Source: a virus
Taxonomy: Duplodnaviria > Heunggongvirae > Uroviricota > Caudoviricetes
IMG/VR virus record: IMGVR_UViG_2671180473_000005
Length of the DNA: 4,567 bases
Reading direction: 5' to 3' (one strand)
The notes under the pieces were generated by a model. The model did not search any database, was not told the origin of the DNA, and saw only the letters and a list, made by a program, of their open reading frames with translations. Made by a program: the position numbers and the translations under genes. This document shows positions 1 through 4,567 of this stretch, piece by piece. Within the stretch, counting starts at the first letter, position 1. Each line of letters opens with the position of its first letter.

Positions 1-64
1 GTCACTCTCGTCTGGGGAATATCTCCCCGGCAGCCTTCAGGGAAAAATATCATCAGATGGCTGC

Positions 65-418
65 TTAAAAAAAGAACAAATGGTAGTGTCCGCTATTGCC
101 AGTACACCTCAATTGCTCTGCGGCTTCGCTCAGAGCTGGCGTATGTTCCCGGCCTACTGATTCACACAGGTAATCAACGAAACCGGACACCAGTTTTCGT
201 TCGCGAGGCGTGATCGCCCCACCGACCGGAGTCCAGTAATCGAAACCCAGTTGCAGGAGTTTGAAAAAACGCTTGTGGAATGCGTAGTTACACACACGCT
301 TAAAGTCTGCGTGTATCCACTCACCTATTTTGATTTGATGCAGAAAATCGCAACTCTCCGGCGTCGCCGGGAGAAGTAATCCGGAAGAGGTTTGTTTGAC
401 CAGTTGTATATGTGCCAT
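65..418 (-). CDS. hypothetical prophage protein, 117 aa from the ATG; probably truncated or frameshifted at its 3' end
   Basis: Minus-strand ORF. ATG at 416-418 is preceded by GGAG about 7 nt upstream; the track ORF 65..460 starts at a TTG overlapping the upstream stop. The protein ends ...GHYHLFFF then TAA at 65-67, immediately after a 7-nt homopolymer (plus A-run 67-73). A neighbouring frame stays open to the window edge. No family recognised. Confidence 0.5.
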   Translation of the reverse strand: MAHIQLVKQTSSGLLLPATPESCDFLHQIKIGEWIHADFKRVCNYAFHKRFFKLLQLGFDYWTPVGGAITPRERKLVSGFVDYLCESVGREHTPALSEAAEQLRCTGNSGHYHLFFF

Positions 419-456
419 CGGCTTTCTCCGGTGGCACGGTGTTACACAGCAGGAGT

Positions 457-744
457 TCAATCCTGCTCAAGATTGTAGATGAGTTTATTCTTCAGCAAAA
501 GCAGAAAACCAGCCTTAAAACCAATCTCTTTCAAAACCCGTAATGATGTGACAAATTCGTCCTCACGCAAAATAAAACCGTCCGTCAGAAGTCCATTACA
601 AAAATAAAATAACACAGCACCGCTCTTCCTTTGTTGAGATTGCAAACATCTAATGCGGCAATGGCTGACAATCGCTCCATTCTCAACGCGCACAGCATAG
701 AGGCCATTTTCACTAAAAATTTCACGCAATTCTTCGATTTTCAT
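457..744 (-). CDS. hypothetical small protein, 95 aa
   Basis: Minus-strand ORF with ATG at 742-744 and an AAGGA Shine-Dalgarno about 8 nt upstream (minus sequence tggaaggattctgaagATG). Coding region is AT-rich, about 40 percent GC by hand count over 481-660. No family recognised. Confidence 0.5.
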   Translation of the reverse strand: MKIEELREIFSENGLYAVRVENGAIVSHCRIRCLQSQQRKSGAVLFYFCNGLLTDGFILREDEFVTSLRVLKEIGFKAGFLLLLKNKLIYNLEQD

Positions 745-825
745 CTTCAGAATCCTTCCAGATAAATAGCTCTCCCCTGTTCGGGGTCCATCCCTCTTCT
801 CCCTGCGCGCTACTTAAGTGAGTCG

Positions 826-853
826 ATTCTATCTGCGAAGGTGCGCGAATCAA
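826..853 (-). promoter_or_regulatory. candidate sigma70 promoter for the 457-744 gene
   Basis: Minus strand reads TTGATT (853-848), a 16-nt spacer, then TAGAAT (831-826), about 80 nt upstream of the ATG at 744. Pattern match only. Confidence 0.3.
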
Positions 854-868
854 ATTCACCGGAAATAA

Positions 869-916
869 ACAACAAAAAACCCGCCGAAACGCTGAGAGAT
901 CACAGCGATGGGCGGG
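869..916 (-). terminator. intrinsic terminator downstream of hok
   Basis: On the minus-strand transcript: GC stem cccgcc(916-911) pairing with ggcggg(885-880), inner helix cgcug/cagcg, followed directly by UUUUUUGUUGUUU (879-867). It lies about 80-125 nt 3' of the hok stop. Confidence 0.5.
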
Positions 917-957
917 TTAAGTGCGGGTGCGTTGAGGATGCCTGACACATCAGAGGT

Positions 958-985
958 GGGCGGGGATGGGATCAGCTCCCCGCCC
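958..985 (-). other. GC-rich stem-loop in the hok 3' UTR
   Basis: Perfect 9-bp inverted repeat gggcgggga (958-966) / tccccgccc (977-985) with a 10-nt loop, starting 9 nt after the hok stop. No U-tract follows, so it is probably a stabilising or fold-back element rather than a terminator. Confidence 0.35.
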
Positions 986-993
986 GGTCACTC

Positions 994-1149
994 TTACTTC
1001 CTGGATTCGTAGTCTACGAAGACAGCGACCTCCGTCTGGCCGGTTCGGATTCGTACCTCACAGAGGTCTTTCCTCGTTACCAGTGCCGTCACTATGACGG
1101 TTAAACAGATGACGATCAGGGCGATTAACATCGCCTTTTGCTGCTTCAT
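994..1149 (-). CDS. hok: Hok family type I toxin (membrane-depolarising host-killing peptide), 51 aa
   Basis: ATG at 1147-1149, TAA at 994-996. Translation MKQQKAMLIALIVICLTVIVTALVTRKDLCEVRIRTGQTEVAVFVDYESRK has the Hok transmembrane helix and conserved LCE..R..G..EVA motif and closely matches HokD/HokC-type chromosomal Hok as recalled. An alternative frame is open from the gap edge to 1058, consistent with an overlapping mok-like frame. Confidence 0.9.
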   Translation of the reverse strand: MKQQKAMLIALIVICLTVIVTALVTRKDLCEVRIRTGQTEVAVFVDYESRK

Positions 1150-1159
1150 AGCCTGCTTC

Positions 1160-1389
1160 NNNNNNNNNNNNNNNNNNNNNNNNNNNNNNNNNNNNNNNNN
1201 NNNNNNNNNNNNNNNNNNNNNNNNNNNNNNNNNNNNNNNNNNNNNNNNNNNNNNNNNNNNNNNNNNNNNNNNNNNNNNNNNNNNNNNNNNNNNNNNNNNN
1301 NNNNNNNNNNNNNNNNNNNNNNNNNNNNNNNNNNNNNNNNNNNNNNNNNNNNNNNNNNNNNNNNNNNNNNNNNNNNNNNNNNNNNNNNN
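1160..1389. other. 230-nt run of N (assembly gap or masked sequence)
   Basis: Directly visible. 230 is not a multiple of 3, so any ORF drawn across it is artefactual. Confidence 1.
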
Positions 1390-2034
1390 GATAAGAGGGC
1401 GTCCCTGAGATTTGCGGTGTAGATTGGTATCGCGCAGAGAATACACACAGCCACAATATTCCTGCTGATAGAATTTTTCGCGCTTGCTGATTTCAATCAT
1501 ACGGGACGAGCCGCCCTGCTTGCGCCAGTTATAATCCCAGTACACCATGCCCGGATAATGCGCGACGGCTCGCCGCCCACAGTCGTTAACCTGCTGCATA
1601 TTTTTCCAGCGTGAAATGCCCAGTGAACTGCTGATCACACTGAAACCATTTTCAGCGGCGTACAGCGCTGTCCGCTCAAAACGCATGTCAAAACACATGG
1701 TGCAACGGATCCCTCGTTCGGGCTCCCATTCCATTCCTTTGGCTCGTTCAAACCAGTTGTCTGTGTCGTAATCAGCATCAATAAACGGCACGCCGTGTTG
1801 TTCAGCAAAGCGAATATTCTCATCCTTACGAATTAAATACTCTTTCTGAGGATGAATGTTCGGGTTGTAGAAAAAGATGGTGTAGTCGATTCCCGAGGCC
1901 TGAAGCGCCTCCATCACCTCACCGGAACATGGAGCACAGCAAGAGTGCAGTAGTAGTTTGTTTGCCCCGTTTGGGAGCTCCAATTTGGGCCGTTTGAAAT
2001 CAGCAACTGTCATAAATATGTTTATTGGGGTCAT
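1390..2034 (-). CDS. queH: QueH/DUF208 family epoxyqueuosine reductase-like protein; 3' end lost in the N gap
   Basis: 215 codons visible from ATG 2032-2034 (alternative ATG 2011-2013) to the gap edge. Carries the motifs recalled for the family: [37 protein letters not shown]. About 25 residues precede the LLLH motif, and neither ATG has a recognisable Shine-Dalgarno. Confidence 0.8.
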
Positions 2035-2181
2035 AAAAATATCAAAGAGTGTAGCATTAGAACGGGGCTATCGGAAACAGATGTGTGACTGCTCCCCGCC
2101 CTTTCGGGTGGTCTCCTGATGATTTGAGGGTGCAGAAATCCCTCCGGTTAAGGATTAAATTTTTAACAGTGCTAAATTTAA

Positions 2182-2538
2182 TTATTCAGTTCTGGATTTT
2201 GTCGCCCTGCGTATCCGCGCTTTCGCGTTACGCTCAATCTGTATCAGCTTTTCTATATTTCTCCGCCTTTCCTGTTCCTCCTGGCGCAATAGCCTTACAT
2301 CATCTGCCAGTCTGGTTTCTCTTTTTGCCACAGAGAGCATCCAGTCAAACGGCTCCACAACCGCACCGCAGATTTTACAGCGGACCTGACGCTCTTTTTC
2401 GTCAACCCGTACAGAGGCGTGATGGCAATATGGTCTTTCCGATGGCTCATAAAGAAAATTAACCTGATTACGAGGGTCATCCTCTTTTACCGGAAATAAA
2501 ACGATATTGCTTAACTCATCTTCTGGTTTTATTTCCAT
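2182..2538 (-). CDS. small Cys/His-motif (zinc-ribbon-like) protein with a basic coiled-coil-like C-terminus, 118 aa
   Basis: ATG at 2536-2538 is preceded by AAGGAGAGGAG. The longer track ORF starts at ATG 2593-2595, which directly abuts the upstream TGA (TGAATG), so that start is possible too. Motif PYCHHASVRVDEKERQVRCKICG, then an R/E/Q-rich tail. No family recognised. Confidence 0.55.
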   Translation of the reverse strand: MEIKPEDELSNIVLFPVKEDDPRNQVNFLYEPSERPYCHHASVRVDEKERQVRCKICGAVVEPFDWMLSVAKRETRLADDVRLLRQEEQERRRNIEKLIQIERNAKARIRRATKSRTE

Positions 2539-2595
2539 GCTCCTCTCCTTTGATGCGAATGCCAGCGGTAATTGAAGCCTGATAGCTAATTTCAT

Positions 2596-3018
2596 TCACA
2601 GTATCGCCTCCTGAAAATTACCCTGATAGAAAGCCAGTACACGCTGCATAGCTTCGCTCTTCCGGCACTCGCGACAGATTATATTCAGGCGCCTGTCGTA
2701 GCGGCGTATTTCTCCGTCAGGTAATGACCAGATAAGGTCCGGATCAACAACAACCGGTTTCCTCACCTTTACTCTCGAGAGTTTTTTGCGGGCGCTTTGC
2801 CAGTCCTTGCGAGCCTGTTCAGACGGGAATAAGCCGTAGCCAGAATTATATACATCACCACTTGCGACCAGTTCTATGCATAAGCGACCGACAGACGCAC
2901 GACTGATACCTGTTTCATCTGACAACTGCCGAATCGTGACCCGACCGTCCTGATGCACGAGTTCCACAATTCGCGTCTTCAGTTCTTCCCGCTGTTCGGG
3001 AGTAAAAGGTTTCGCCAT
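2596..3018 (-). CDS. winged-helix/HTH DNA-binding protein of the phage replication operon, 140 aa
   Basis: ATG at 3016-3018 with an AGGAGG Shine-Dalgarno 5-6 nt upstream, 14 nt after the DnaC-like stop. N-terminal segment ...VTIRQLSDETGISRASVGRLCIELVASGDVY looks like a helix-turn-helix. Exact family uncertain. Confidence 0.7.
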   Translation of the reverse strand: MAKPFTPEQREELKTRIVELVHQDGRVTIRQLSDETGISRASVGRLCIELVASGDVYNSGYGLFPSEQARKDWQSARKKLSRVKVRKPVVVDPDLIWSLPDGEIRRYDRRLNIICRECRKSEAMQRVLAFYQGNFQEAIL

Positions 3019-3032
3019 AAATCCTCCTGAAA

Positions 3033-3779
3033 CTACTTAACAACCCTCGAATGGCTAACATTCGGACGCCAGCTCTCCCAGTTAAAATTCACCCAGCGCC
3101 CGCCGTTCATGACCATGCGATCCATCACCCGCTCGCCGAGCAATGTTTTCATCACCTCATAGTTCAGGTTTGTCAGCATCCCCACGCTGCGCATCGACGC
3201 TGTCCGGCGATCAACAATCTGGTGCAGCACCACCTGCTCGTTTTTCGTCTCGCGCTGAATGCCAATTTCATCAAGAACCAGCAGATCCACTTCGCACAGC
3301 TCCCGCAAAAATTTTTCGCCTGACTGCCCGTCGTCATAGCTGGCGTGCAGGGCGCTCATAACATCAGCCACGGTAACCACAATCACTGTCTGACCGTCTT
3401 TCAGCAGGCGATTCCCGATAGCTGCCGCTAAGTGATTCTTCCCGGTACCAGGTTTTCCGCTGAACGCAAAATTTGTACACCCGGTCATCAGTTCATCGGC
3501 GATGGATTTCGCCTGGCTTAACGCGTATCGCTGGCCGTCGTTCTGCACCTGGTAATTCGCAAACGAGCATTTACGGTGCAACGGCTGGATGCCTGAGCGA
3601 TTCAGAATTTTTTCCACCCGCAACTGGCGATTCAGGCGGTTGATCTCCTCGCTACGTTTCTGGCCTTCAGCAAGTTGCCACTCGCGCCACTCCGCTACCG
3701 TTCTGAATGGGGCGGTTACATGTGGCGGGGTCAGTCGGCGGATGCGTTCCAGAACGCCGCCTGTCGCAATATTTTTCAT
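3033..3779 (-). CDS. DnaC-family AAA+ helicase loader (phage replication protein, IstB-like ATPase), 248 aa
   Basis: Walker A FSGKPGTGKNHLAAAIG and Walker B DLLVLDEIG are present. ATG at 3777-3779 lies 6 nt downstream of the stop of the initiator C-terminal frame, as expected for a replication operon. Confidence 0.9.
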   Translation of the reverse strand: MKNIATGGVLERIRRLTPPHVTAPFRTVAEWREWQLAEGQKRSEEINRLNRQLRVEKILNRSGIQPLHRKCSFANYQVQNDGQRYALSQAKSIADELMTGCTNFAFSGKPGTGKNHLAAAIGNRLLKDGQTVIVVTVADVMSALHASYDDGQSGEKFLRELCEVDLLVLDEIGIQRETKNEQVVLHQIVDRRTASMRSVGMLTNLNYEVMKTLLGERVMDRMVMNGGRWVNFNWESWRPNVSHSRVVK

Positions 3780-4133
3780 GGTCCGTTACCCCCTGAAGCC
3801 TGGCGGGATCGCACTGTCCGGCAACGAGACGGTGTTAACCTGTCGGAGCAACGTCTCAGGCCGAACACCTTTCGGCGCGAACAGGCCCTGGTATTCATTG
3901 GCGATGCTGTGTCGAATCACCTGCTCAGGTGTAAAACCCTGCTGACGGAATTTTTCCAGTTCCCGTATCGCCCCGTTAGCGCCCTGCTCCGTTCGAATCG
4001 GTTTTCGCAATGCCTGTCTGAACCGGACCCACTCATGCCAGAGTGTTTCCGGCAACCAATCGGGCAGCTCAATAGCCTCCGGCTCGAATTTTTTAGACGC
4101 TCGTTTTTGGCGAGGGGGAGATCAGTATTTAGA

Positions 4134-4154
4134 TCTTCCTCTTCCTCTTCCTCT
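4134..4154. repeat. hexanucleotide tandem repeat (TCTTCC) x3.5
   Basis: tcttcc tcttcc tcttcc tct on the plus strand. On the minus strand it encodes EEEEEE in the linker frame (RGRGRG and RKRKRK in the other two). Confidence 0.9.
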
Positions 4155-4246
4155 GGTAACGCTTTTTGATCCGTTTGTGTAACGCTGGCAGCGTTACCTT
4201 TTCGTTTCAGTTCGCGTATTTTTGTTACTCGCTCGTTTGTAACCGC
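4155..4246. repeat. cluster of dyad-symmetric TGTAACGC/GCGTTACA repeats, candidate replication-origin iterons
   Basis: Perfect 19-bp palindrome GTAACGCTG-G-CAGCGTTAC at 4179-4197; further half-site copies at 4155-4162 (ggtaacgc), 4224-4228 (gttac) and 4238-4246 (tgtaaccgc); motif cgtttgt(g)taac recurs at 4172-4183 and 4234-4243. Confidence 0.4.
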
Positions 4247-4386
4247 CCGTTTTTTTTAGAGCTTTTTCCGTTATGACGTTCAAAGTTAGGTAGAGAAAGC
4301 CCTCCGTCATTTTCGACCAGCCATCCAACCTGAATTAACGCATCAGCAAAACCAGACATAAAAGTGATGCGATCTATTGCACTTTT

Positions 4387-4407
4387 TGTAACGCCGCGAG
4401 CGTTACA
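4387..4407. repeat. second palindromic copy of the TGTAACGC half-site
   Basis: tgtaacgc (4387-4394), 5-nt spacer cgcga, gcgttaca (4400-4407): perfect 8-bp arms, inside the initiator N-terminal coding region. Confidence 0.4.
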
Positions 4408-4462
4408 ATCTGCATTACCGTCTATCATTTGTTGATCCGCCCATGCCCAGAAGCGAATAACC

Positions 4463-4567
4463 TGAGGTAGCCTGAGTTTAACGGACACTCCTTCCTGAAA
4501 TAGAATGGCATCAGAAGGAGCTAATAATGAGCAGAAAAACCCAACGTTACTCTAAAGAGTTCAAAGC
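4463..4567 (+). mobile_element. left end of an IS3-family insertion sequence (IS600-like), partial
   Basis: Sequence begins TGAGGTAGCCTGAGTTTAACGGACAC at about 4463 (IS3-family ends typically start TGA). About 64 nt later a GAAGGAG Shine-Dalgarno and ATG start an OrfA-like gene. The exact boundary is not established. Confidence 0.5.
4527..4567 (+). CDS. IS3-family transposase OrfA, N-terminus only (runs off the window)
   Basis: ATG 4527-4529 with AGGAG 6 nt upstream; translation MSRKTQRYSKEFKA matches the N-terminus of IS600-type OrfA as recalled. Confidence 0.6.
   Translation, partial: MSRKTQRYSKEFK

Follow-up and report, generated by a model that had tools for sequence, protein, structure and literature searches.

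Two small genes stand between a helicase-loader gene and a gene for QueH in a prophage fragment, and the question is what they are and whether they work together. They lie in a window of 4,567 nucleotides, which is the whole stretch of DNA analysed here. The list of open reading frames contains two intact frames on the minus strand, 2596-3018 (140 aa) and 2182-2538 (118 aa). Each is one substitution away from its copy in the intact relative NZ_CP065615, where the products are annotated as WP_001118169.1 (DUF977 family protein) and WP_001343130.1 (hypothetical). Both families are already catalogued, and RefSeq contains near-identical entries for both proteins. The answer proposed here, which we consider rather likely as a whole, is that a gene of the Ren family is followed by an independent gene of a zinc-ribbon family, and that the two are separate modules.

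The fragment between the two flanking IS600 copies comprises 4,351 bp (112-4462). The second copy has the same orientation as the first, carries the orfA ATG at 4527, and is annotated as an IS3-like IS600 transposase. The first copy truncates a DUF1367/NinB-like gene, whose DUF1367 match covers profile positions 1-102 of 198 only. The second truncates an O-like replication gene, which is frameshifted as well. The 3' end of the QueH gene is masked by a run of N (1160-1389). The prophage is lambdoid and Rac-like, from E. coli or Shigella, and the two genes are part of its early rightward (replication/nin) operon. Coordinates of all features are given in Table 1.

Table 1. Features of the window, with the evidence for each.
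Feature	Position	Strand	Evidence
IS600 copy, 3' end	1..111	+	100% identical to IS600 in L001
QueH (DUF208) gene	1390..2034	-	Pfam QueH, E=1.6e-65
118-aa zinc-ribbon and long-helix gene	2182..2538	-	PHROG 1621
Single 55-residue helix, residues 63-117	2188..2352	-	AF2
Basic motif IEKLIQIERNAKARIRR, residues 95-111	2206-2256	-	Alignments
Zinc-ribbon knuckles C38-x-H40 ... C54-x2-C57	2368..2427	-	Alignments A1, A2; AF2
Short motif ELSNIVLFP, residues 8-16, predicted disordered acidic tail	2491..2517	-	Alignments
Intergenic spacer, 57 nt, in frame with both genes	2539..2595	-	Shine-Dalgarno AAGGAGAGGAG
140-aa DUF977/YdaW ('LygF') gene	2596..3018	-	Pfam PF06163; PHROG 142 (also holds lambda Ren)
C-terminal 'Ren motif', residues 110-132, RLNIICRECRKSEAMQRVLAFYQ	2623..2691	-	BLASTP, hhalign
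Winged helix-turn-helix domain, residues 7-65	2824..3000	-	AF2, Foldseek
Spacer 3' of DnaC/YdaV-like gene, 14 nt	3019..3032	-	Read from sequence
DnaC/YdaV-like helicase loader	3033..3779	-	NCBIfam PRK12377, E=8e-154; PHROG 50, E=1e-82
Second IS600 copy, 5' end	4463..4567	+	100% identical to IS600 ends in L001

Both genes carry strong ribosome-binding sites. The DnaC-like gene stops at TAG (3033-3035) and the 140-aa gene starts at ATG (3016-3018), leaving a 14-nt gap in which AGGAGG at 3023-3028 (reverse complement) serves as the Shine-Dalgarno sequence. The 140-aa frame ends at TGA (2596-2598), and 57 nt later the 118-aa frame begins with the ATG at 2536-2538, immediately preceded by its ribosome-binding site AAAGGAGAGGAGC. 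The original prediction of two small genes tightly packed behind the DnaC-like gene was therefore confirmed. It had also allowed a gap of 0 nt, corresponding to a 137-aa frame opening at 2595, and this start was rejected: in other genera, the homologues start where the 118-aa frame does. In addition, the TGA is followed by ATG, GTG or GTA across 47 junctions, the last of which is no start codon, so that no start is conserved there.

For DUF977, dN/dS ranged from 0.10 to 0.23. Compared with its other-genus homologues, the zinc-ribbon gene gave dN values of 0.19-0.47 with saturated dS. Purifying selection acts on both genes and on both families. This bears on the possibility that the two genes are leftovers of a decayed prophage, silent and functionless in this genome, which we regard as a serious one, even if the balance is slightly against it. 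The IS600 copies that bracket the fragment, the truncated and frameshifted O-like gene and the truncated DUF1367 gene all fit such decay. The pR/cro region is not within the window (its location is seen in NZ_CP065615). IS600 separates the fragment from this promoter region, and expression in this genome is therefore doubtful. The minus strand showed no promoter or terminator consensus; its scan for sigma-70-like promoters covered 900-3200. On the other hand, both frames are intact and nearly unchanged from the NZ_CP065615 copies, their families are under purifying selection as judged above, and an IS-borne or internal promoter may still drive expression.

The proposed reading, a Ren-family gene beside an independent zinc-ribbon gene, rests in its first part on the 140-aa protein. 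This protein matches Pfam DUF977 (PF06163) over the full length of the family, with an E-value of 1.1e-33 and 116.5 bits, above the gathering threshold of 22.1 bits; residues 1-136 align to profile positions 1-134 of 134. It also matches PHROG 142, 'Ren-like exclusion protein' (E=2.7e-44, residues 1-139 on profile positions 1-115 of 116), and so does lambda Ren itself (NP_040633, E=1.6e-41). On sequence grounds, the 140-aa protein belongs to lambda Ren's family (DUF977/YdaW). As a full-length DUF977/YdaW gene whose product shares the PHROG of lambda Ren, the 140-aa gene is therefore the ren-position gene itself.

The similarity to lambda Ren is most evident at the C-terminus. Residues 112-131 align to Ren residues 73-92 with 60% identity in BLASTP (E=3e-7), and hhalign of the C-terminal motif with lambda Ren returned a probability of 90% (E=1.7e-6); apart from the PHROG 142 match, pairwise similarity is confined to about 23 residues. 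The motif, ECRxSxAMxRVLAxY, is nearly invariant in the alignment of the 140-aa family (A6). Lambda Ren gave no match to Pfam DUF977 at E<=1. Both proteins combine this C-terminus with an N-terminal MarR-like winged helix. They differ in length, 96 aa in Ren and 140 aa in the window protein, and the AF2 model of the latter has an extra helix (67-83) and a low-confidence beta region at about residues 90-110.

The position agrees with the family. The 140-aa gene lies directly 3' of the DnaC/YdaV-like gene, and lambda ren overlaps the end of P. Both are thus immediately 3' of a helicase-loader gene in the pR operon, although the loader upstream is of the DnaC/IstB type here and not lambda P. The 140-aa gene and the 118-aa gene both sit at the ren/nin position, as had been proposed. 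The 140-aa protein is also a full-length member of the family of YdaW of the Rac prophage, also called 'LygF' (DUF977), with the same synteny of ydaV followed by DUF977 (NZ_CP065615). It shares 72-77% identity with the copies carried by Rac-SA53, mEp460 and the Shigella Stx phages 75/02 and POCJ13. The ydaW of K-12 is a shorter, variant form according to EcoCyc-based literature (PMC9308461). In the literature, 'LygF' was found solely as an annotation label, and 'DUF977' in one unrelated paper.

The winged helix that had been predicted in the 140-aa protein is borne out by the structural model. AF2 places a winged helix-turn-helix at residues 7-65, with pLDDT of 92-95 over residues 11-70, and Foldseek matches it to GntR, IclR, MarR and ArsR proteins, the best folds being generic regulators. 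This is the variable part of the protein. In alignment A6, the region of the recognition helix (about residues 33-49) differs among alleles, which carry alternative helix-3 sequences. Identity to one phage allele is 48% over residues 1-50 and 93% over residues 51-140, and E. coli megablast matches end at window position 2878, inside the gene, which marks a mosaic break. The N-terminal allele of the window is a rarer one, present in only 87 of 5,426 E. coli genomes at >=80% coverage. A YdaV/DnaC-type gene lies 5' of it in 21 of 21 cases, and other N-terminal alleles pair with several different upstream genes. The association of an N-terminal allele with its upstream gene could be mere physical linkage. 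A reading of the domain as Z-alpha, which binds Z-DNA, was rejected. The profile matches Z-alpha of PKZ weakly (E=0.0026), and the key Asn and Tyr are missing: the positions aligned to them (VNRHLY) are S/G and R/C in DUF977.

The 118-aa protein belongs to an uncharacterised family. It matches PHROG 1621 (function unknown) with an E-value of 3e-56, residues 1-117 aligning to profile positions 1-120 of 134, and no Pfam or NCBIfam family above threshold. A set of 148 homologues was collected, all hypothetical or generically named, and a profile search with the family reached 1,586 representative clusters at 50% identity. Each of the 68 distant homologues tested also hits PHROG 1621, and no Pfam family was matched consistently among them. 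PHROGs 8538 and 4865 are related to PHROG 1621, for which neither a Pfam model nor a solved or characterised relative was found. A literature search for WP_001343130 returned nothing. Single-protein scans for more distant loci found nothing, and a search for the DNA pattern of KRxERNAKAR gave 49 loci, at only 5 of which a family member is encoded. Thus, of the original statement that neither protein falls into a recognisable family, the part on the 140-aa protein does not hold (DUF977/PHROG 142), and the part on the 118-aa protein does, its only home being the uncharacterised PHROG 1621. Assignment to a well-characterised family was accordingly achieved for one of the two proteins.

Three conserved elements are recognised along the 118-aa protein. 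The first is an N-terminal tail with the short motif listed in Table 1. Across 27 enterobacterial homologues (alignment A1), L9, N11, F15 and P16 of this motif do not vary, and E8 is kept in at least 90%; the core 'NVxxFP' is retained in the distant set A3. The tail is acidic (net charge of -5 over residues 1-35) and modelled with pLDDT of 51-59 over residues 1-40. The second element is the zinc ribbon. C38, H40, C54 and C57 are invariant in the enterobacterial set, and among the 68 distant homologues (alignment A2) the three cysteines remain invariant and H40 is at least 90% conserved. AF2 models strands 43-46 and 51-54 with a short bridge at 60-61. With four conserved ligands in two knuckles on a hairpin, the protein agrees in alignment and model with what is generally expected of a zinc site, and zinc binding is predicted. 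The third element is the long helix, which reaches pLDDT of 91-95 over residues 81-110. It has a hydrophobic seam at a/d positions and a net charge of +8 over residues 91-118. It ends in a nearly invariant basic motif (ERNAKARIR); the motif does not vary within the enterobacterial set (A1), and the distant members (A2) keep L98, N104 and R108 in at least 90%. The Cys/His motif that had been noticed in the sequence alone is thus conserved in the 27 enterobacterial and the 68 distant homologues, and the Arg/Glu-rich tail noticed with it is basic and modelled as a helix.

Foldseek with the 118-aa model returned generic zinc ribbons and generic long helices only. The best match was the TFIIB-type zinc ribbon of 1pft (E=0.17), and the likeness lies in a small three-stranded ribbon with a similar knuckle spacing (PF08271; PDB 1pft). 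The PF08271 match is sub-threshold, with 21.5 bits against a cutoff of 29 (E=1.7e-4), and only 8 of the 68 family members match this profile at E<=0.01. In contrast to the TFIIB ribbon, the first knuckle is C-x-H and not C-x2-C/H, and a single long helix follows the ribbon instead of a cyclin-like core. Some small zinc proteins of phages, DksA/TraR (lambda Orf73) and P2 Ogr among them, are known to bind RNA polymerase (PMC8614690). The 118-aa protein resembles these in being small, phage-encoded, partly helical, located in the early region and predicted here to bind zinc. It did not match the Pfam families of DksA/TraR or Ogr/Delta at E<=1. In TraR and Orf73 the zinc site is of the C4 type and the N-terminus forms an acidic DxxDxA helix, whereas the 118-aa protein has a C-H-C-C site that is N-terminal to its single long basic helix. 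The protein was also considered as the separated C-terminal domain of Ea22 (933W L0065) known from the literature. This was rejected, as tblastn found no zinc-ribbon homologue in 933W and Phi24B, and the protein does not carry the terminal basic-Gly-Glu tripeptide of Ea22.

Additional hints come from the contexts of distant family members. In five distant phage contigs (L103, L121, L098, L097 and L109), some of them from related subfamilies, the gene lies 0-4 genes upstream of the large terminase, and in L103 and L121 it overlaps the large-terminase start. This adjacency is absent in the enterobacterial members. In prophages of Serratia, Erwinia, Pantoea and Kluyvera, the gene is found directly, or one small ORF, before a gene in the position of Q, the late antiterminator; the Serratia gene matches a Q-like PHROG and the other three were read by eye. 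These placements, together with the sub-threshold TFIIB-like ribbon and the basic helix end, suggest that the zinc-ribbon protein might be a late-gene transcription factor or a terminase-linked packaging accessory whose activity the short enterobacterial form retains. We find this role unlikely. The copies in E. coli are far from the late genes, following DUF977 or lying within the Ea22 (pL) region, and the protein has no sequence similarity to the terminase small-subunit or late-activator families. Moreover, the small-terminase slot is taken by other ORFs in most distant loci, and few contexts were sampled.

Another role to be weighed is counter-defence. One or both proteins could be counter-defence or host-takeover proteins directed against host or prophage immunity, instead of regulating the DNA of the phage itself. 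Escape from Rex exclusion, by which ren is defined, gave the Ren family its name, and the category of PHROG 142 is 'moron, auxiliary metabolic gene and host takeover'. In two-hybrid assays, lambda Ren interacts with the Rex proteins, and the same preprint calls it 'likely involved in DNA replication' (bioRxiv 10.1101/2021.04.19.439022). A preprint screen recovered ydaW as a blocker of RcaT, the toxin of retron-Sen2 (bioRxiv 10.1101/2020.06.22.160242). The ydaW of that screen is the truncated K-12 allele. Both genes are part of early operons and adjoin variable cargo slots, and a surface motif that is invariant in the zinc-ribbon family across genera would fit a conserved target. Nevertheless, we consider a counter-defence role doubtful. 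PADLOC found no match for the 118-aa protein, and for the 140-aa protein it gave weak generic winged-helix matches alone (E>=0.0017) and no defence system. No anti-defence activity is reported for PHROG 1621 in the literature. Near-invariant motifs and wide conservation are equally typical of core accessory factors.

To return to the proposed reading of a Ren-family gene and an independent zinc-ribbon gene, its second part is that the two are separate, and this can be followed in the genomes. The zinc-ribbon gene was detected in 1,679 of 5,426 complete E. coli genomes (31%), DUF977 in 3,617 (67%), and the junction of the two in 968 (18%). In a set of 96 loci, the zinc-ribbon gene is preceded by DUF977 in 47 and by an Ea22-like gene in 33. 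In other genera it follows genes for RusA, NinG, Dam methylase, DUF968 or DnaC, and at none of the loci examined outside Escherichia and Shigella was it adjacent to DUF977. Of the 47 DUF977-zinc-ribbon junctions, 46 have the same 57-nt spacer. A single spacer at the junctions points to one ancestral event, and the junctions therefore give no independent support for pairing. The module shared with Stx phages starts at window position 2567, within this spacer, and the shared DNA stops 44 nt past the zinc-ribbon stop codon. The zinc-ribbon gene, which has a ribosome-binding site of its own, is thus shown to behave as a self-contained module of the mosaic. The two genes are separate mosaic modules that became neighbours through one ancestral recombination junction, and they do not form an obligate pair. 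As 18% of the E. coli genomes have the junction, a degree of functional cooperation may still exist.

A dedicated two-component unit, in which the winged-helix protein has the zinc-ribbon protein as its partner or is fused to it by read-through, is accordingly improbable. Adjacency in 968 genomes speaks for it. So do the single reading frame, in which one TGA and the open spacer separate the genes, and the rare chimeric proteins (P0040, P0042 and P0060) that join parts of both. Yet the chimeras consist of zinc-ribbon residues 1-85 joined to DUF977 from residue 24 to its end. This order is the reverse of that in the window, and the chimeras therefore reflect deletion or rearrangement and not read-through. 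A fusion by stop-codon read-through was rejected, since the in-frame relation is one inherited junction. About 42% of the E. coli genomes with the zinc-ribbon gene and about 73% of those with DUF977 are without the junction. The absence of the junction from the loci examined outside Escherichia and Shigella and the strong ribosome-binding site of the zinc-ribbon gene also argue against such a unit.

The genes further downstream raise a similar question. It had been suggested that the two genes may form an accessory function together with QueH and hok, to be checked by the co-occurrence of the pair with DUF208 or hok. This suggestion did not survive the survey of loci. The gene next after the zinc-ribbon gene is QueH in 13 of the 96 loci, all with a single arrangement, and QueH was not found beside zinc-ribbon homologues in the other-genus loci examined. 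In the remaining loci the slot is variable; it holds dATP/dGTP pyrophosphohydrolase-DUF551 in 27, HNH in 11, and other small genes. A single accessory function of all four genes is highly improbable. In its favour, the four share strand and order in the window and in NZ_CP065615, where QueH (annotated as epoxyqueuosine reductase) is followed by hokD, and DUF977 lies upstream in 13 of the 13 QueH-bearing loci. Against it stand the low frequency of QueH and its replacement by other genes, a 147-nt gap between the zinc-ribbon gene and QueH, the end of the Stx-shared module within that gap, and hokD, which is a self-contained type I toxin-antitoxin locus. The gap contains no recognisable RNA element (no Rfam match at E<=0.1; fold z-score of -0.44). 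Neither of the two genes is functionally tied to QueH or hok, and these fill a variable cargo slot.

We infer mechanisms for both families from these observations. The 140-aa protein may serve the replication module of the phage as an accessory factor and act as Ren reportedly does, helping the phage to evade exclusion or toxin systems that the host or resident prophages encode. The variable winged helix would give specificity for a DNA site or a partner, and the conserved C-terminus would carry the common activity. The 118-aa protein is predicted from its model to be a zinc-stabilised coiled-coil oligomer. Its basic helix end might dock onto nucleic acid or a DNA-handling machine, and the protein may act around the early-to-late transition. 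In a broader view, PHROG 1621 would represent an unrecognised and widespread class of phage factors, acting through their invariant basic helix end at the early-to-late or packaging step or against a conserved host system. The DUF977/Ren proteins would be anti-exclusion factors specific to the replication module, and the allelic recognition helix would determine their specificity. This broader view is speculative, and we think it unlikely to hold in full.

As a discovery, the locus carries little weight, both families being catalogued and both proteins nearly the same as their RefSeq counterparts. These are ordinary early genes of a prophage. The genetic definition of ren dates back 45 years. 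One family at the ren position goes by four names, 'DUF977', 'YdaW', 'LygF' and 'Ren-like'. The variable cargo slot, with QueH, dATP/dGTP pyrophosphohydrolase, HNH and others, may interest those who map morons and defence hotspots. The zinc-ribbon family is large, has strikingly conserved motifs, and is present in a third of complete E. coli genomes; Stx2a phages are among its carriers. With its size, its conservation and its carriage by E. coli and Stx2a phages, the family could be taken up at low cost in a first study of function.

All the recognisable genes of the window are carried on the minus strand (see table). The closest complete record is that of Escherichia coli FDAARGOS_943 (NZ_CP065615), in which the same stretch is found within a Rac-like prophage in the order cI-like repressor, cro-like gene, ydaT, O-like gene, ydaV, DUF977, a hypothetical gene, QueH, hokD and, further on, DUF1367, DUF1364, DUF1133 and lysis genes. 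Shigella sonnei and Shigella flexneri are the sources of the nearest protein clusters. No Rfam family was detected across the whole window. The 230-base N run also masks the region upstream of hok, where mok/sok elements would be expected.

Genes of the window in transcription order, flanking IS600 copies, and zinc-ribbon loci near large terminase genes in distant phage contigs
Feature	Sequence	Coordinates	Strand	Remarks
O-like replication gene, disrupted	window	3786-4462	-	first in transcription order
DnaC/YdaV-like helicase loader	window	3033-3779	-	NCBIfam PRK12377, E=8e-154
140-aa gene (DUF977)	window	2596-3018	-	after helicase loader
118-aa gene (zinc ribbon)	window	2182-2538	-	after 140-aa gene
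QueH	window	1390-2034	-	3' end under N run 1160-1389
hok	window	from 994	-	after QueH
95-aa gene	window	457-744	-	after hok
DUF1367/NinB-like gene, truncated	window		-	last in transcription order
IS600, 3' end	window	1-111		transposase stop at 66-68; 100% identical to IS600 copies in L001
IS600 second copy, 5' end	window	4463-4567		orfA ATG at 4527; 100% identical to IS600 copies in L001
Zinc-ribbon gene and terminase	L103	5001-7375		overlaps large terminase start
Zinc-ribbon gene and terminase	L121	913-4070		overlaps terminase start; between DUF5681 protein and intein-containing large terminase
Zinc-ribbon gene and terminase	L098/L099	5001-7725 (L098)		one gene between
Zinc-ribbon gene and terminase	L109	5737-9734		two genes between
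Zinc-ribbon gene and terminase	L097	5001-8724		four genes between

Two small genes of DNA-binding type had been predicted between the helicase loader and QueH, and their coordinates, strand, lengths and gaps agree with the sequence; the position and fold types proposed for them hold as well. The gap of 14 nt from the loader stop to the ATG of the 140-aa gene contains AGGAGG, and the stop TGA of the latter (2596-2598) is separated from the ATG of the 118-aa gene (2536-2538) by 57 nt with AAGGAGAGGAG. A longer ORF of 137 aa, which would leave a 0-nt gap, was rejected: the 118-aa start is shared by homologues in Klebsiella, Kluyvera, Serratia, Erwinia, Yersinia and others, and across 47 sequenced junctions the codon at the additional start reads ATG, GTG or GTA, the last of which is no start codon. 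Purifying selection acts on both genes, and both proteins are already present in public databases at 99-100% identity.

The 140-aa protein belongs to DUF977 over its full length (E=1.1e-33). It matches PHROG 142, "Ren-like exclusion protein", with E=2.7e-44, as does lambda Ren (from NC_001416) with E=1.6e-41, and both share the C-terminal motif NxxxxECRxSxAMxRVLAxY (BLASTP E=3e-7; hhalign 90% probability). Lambda Ren reached no match to Pfam DUF977, and its relationship to the window protein is therefore distant; kinship is supported by the shared PHROG, the shared two-part architecture and the fact that both genes come immediately behind the loader gene. AlphaFold modelling (mean pLDDT 78.7) yields a winged helix of high confidence, made up of helices 7-24, 29-36 and 40-53 and then the wing; a further helix spans 67-83, and confidence is low over the C-terminal third. 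Foldseek matched the model only to generic GntR, IclR, MarR and ArsR winged helices. A Z-alpha domain was rejected, as the profile match was weak (E=0.0026) and the Asn and Tyr that contact Z-DNA are absent. Neither protein could be placed in a family in the original prediction; the 140-aa protein is in fact a catalogued Ren/DUF977 member, and the 118-aa protein stays a functional orphan. Toothman and Herskowitz (1980) are reported to have defined ren as the lambda gene whose loss renders the phage sensitive to Rex exclusion. The functional literature on the Ren/YdaW family is thin: Ren has been described as interacting with Rex proteins and as "likely involved in DNA replication" (bioRxiv 10.1101/2021.04.19.439022), ydaW was listed with other prophage genes blocking the retron-Sen2 toxin (bioRxiv 10.1101/2020.06.22.160242), and a further source (PMC9308461) counts YdaW among predicted transcription factors of unknown function.

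A feature absent from the original prediction is the internal mosaicism of the DUF977 gene, with a break near 2878. Megablast matches in E. coli are limited to 2596-2878, which encodes residues ~48-140, and comparison with a phage allele gives 48% identity over the N-terminal 50 residues and ~93% over the remaining C-terminal two thirds. The allelic part comprises the first ~48 codons, with the recognition helix as its variable block. A YdaV/DnaC-type loader lies upstream of the window's allele in 21/21 cases; other DUF977 alleles pair with O-like or other genes, not one-to-one.

Genome counts, neighbouring genes, a single spacer and contexts in other genera that lack DUF977 and QueH lead us to the conclusion that the DUF977 and zinc-ribbon genes form separate mosaic modules, with QueH and hok in a variable cargo slot. 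Among 5,426 complete E. coli genomes, the zinc-ribbon gene is found in 1,679, DUF977 in 3,617, their junction in 968, and the whole 1-kb arrangement with the window's N-terminal DUF977 allele in 72. In a census of 96 loci, drawn from viral contigs and from species-representative genomes, DUF977 lies upstream of the zinc-ribbon gene at 47 loci and an Ea22-like gene at 33. The downstream gene is a dATP/dGTP pyrophosphohydrolase-DUF551 gene (27/96), QueH, a DUF208 epoxyqueuosine reductase (13/96), an HNH endonuclease (11/96) or one of many others, including small genes; the proposed link of the pair to QueH and hok is accordingly not supported. This slot, read in loci L017-L096, corresponds to window 2035-2181 and beyond. 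An identical 57-nt spacer occurs in 46 of the 47 DUF977-zinc-ribbon junctions, and the adjacency therefore arose once and then spread.

The same zinc-ribbon module, equivalent to window 2138-2567 and including its own ribosome-binding site, lies between Ea22-like genes in the leftward early region of Stx2a phages (e.g., ArgO145). In Serratia, the gene follows RusA or NinG and is one small ORF before a Q-like antiterminator. In Erwinia, Pantoea, Photorhabdus and Kluyvera it follows NinG, RusA, Dam methylase or DUF968, and the genes after it are Q-like by our reading. Providencia and Morganella phages carry it between a methylase and a Holliday-junction resolvase, and in a Methylococcaceae prophage its start overlaps the stop of the DnaC-like gene that immediately precedes it. 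Neither DUF977 nor QueH is found beside it at the loci of these genera and of Methylococcaceae. The Ea22-adjacent copies of the 96-locus census are all separate ORFs. Rare natural chimeras were also observed (P0002, P0242, P0040, P0042 and P0060) and are of two kinds: the complete zinc-ribbon protein preceded, in the same frame, by an N-terminus and coiled coil of Ea22-like type (202 and 256 aa), or residues 1-85 (or 1-72) of the zinc-ribbon protein joined to the C-terminal part of DUF977.

The locus itself is disrupted. The IS600 copies at the two ends of the window have the same orientation and so enclose the prophage fragment (112-4462; 4,351 bp) in the manner of a composite transposon. Their insertions truncate the DUF1367 and O-like genes. 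The O-like gene is in addition frameshifted relative to the single 260-aa CDS of NZ_CP065615, with a 4-nt difference at 4127-4133, within a variable stretch (4120-4139), and a T run that is longer by two T, at 4250-4251. As a result of the IS600 truncation the cro/pR region is missing, which makes the expression of both small genes in this genome uncertain.

The 118-aa protein matches PHROG 1621 (E=3e-56) and, more weakly, PHROGs 8538 and 4865; none of the three has an assigned function. Nothing in Pfam, NCBIfam or PADLOC scored above threshold. A word-indexed search returned 148 relatives, all from Enterobacterales and nearly all named hypothetical. Exhaustive HMM searching extended the family to 1,586 representative clusters at E<=0.001 (231 at E<=1e-10). 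In a set of 68 distant members, C38, C54 and C57 never vary, conservation is at least 90% at H40, R50, L98, N104 and R108, and the consensus includes DPFD and LKRxERNAKARIR. In enterobacterial members (43-72% identity), the helix segment LRxEExxRRxNIEKLIQIERNAKARIRR and the short N-terminal motif ELSNVVxFP (residues 8-16, window 2491-2517) are almost invariant. The latter looks like a docking peptide for some partner. It sits in an otherwise disordered acidic tail, and distant members retain it in the form NVxxFP.

In five distant phage contigs, the zinc-ribbon gene, mostly of a long form of ~180 aa, lies 0-4 genes upstream of the large terminase, which in L121 has LAGLIDADG/Hint (intein) signatures. 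In several enterobacterial prophages it closely precedes the Q-position gene; E. coli copies are at neither position. The proximity to terminase and the pre-Q position suggest, as a minority hypothesis drawn from a small sample uncorrected for relatedness, that the family acts around the early-to-late or packaging step. The residual value of the locus lies in this unexplained and very conserved zinc-ribbon family.
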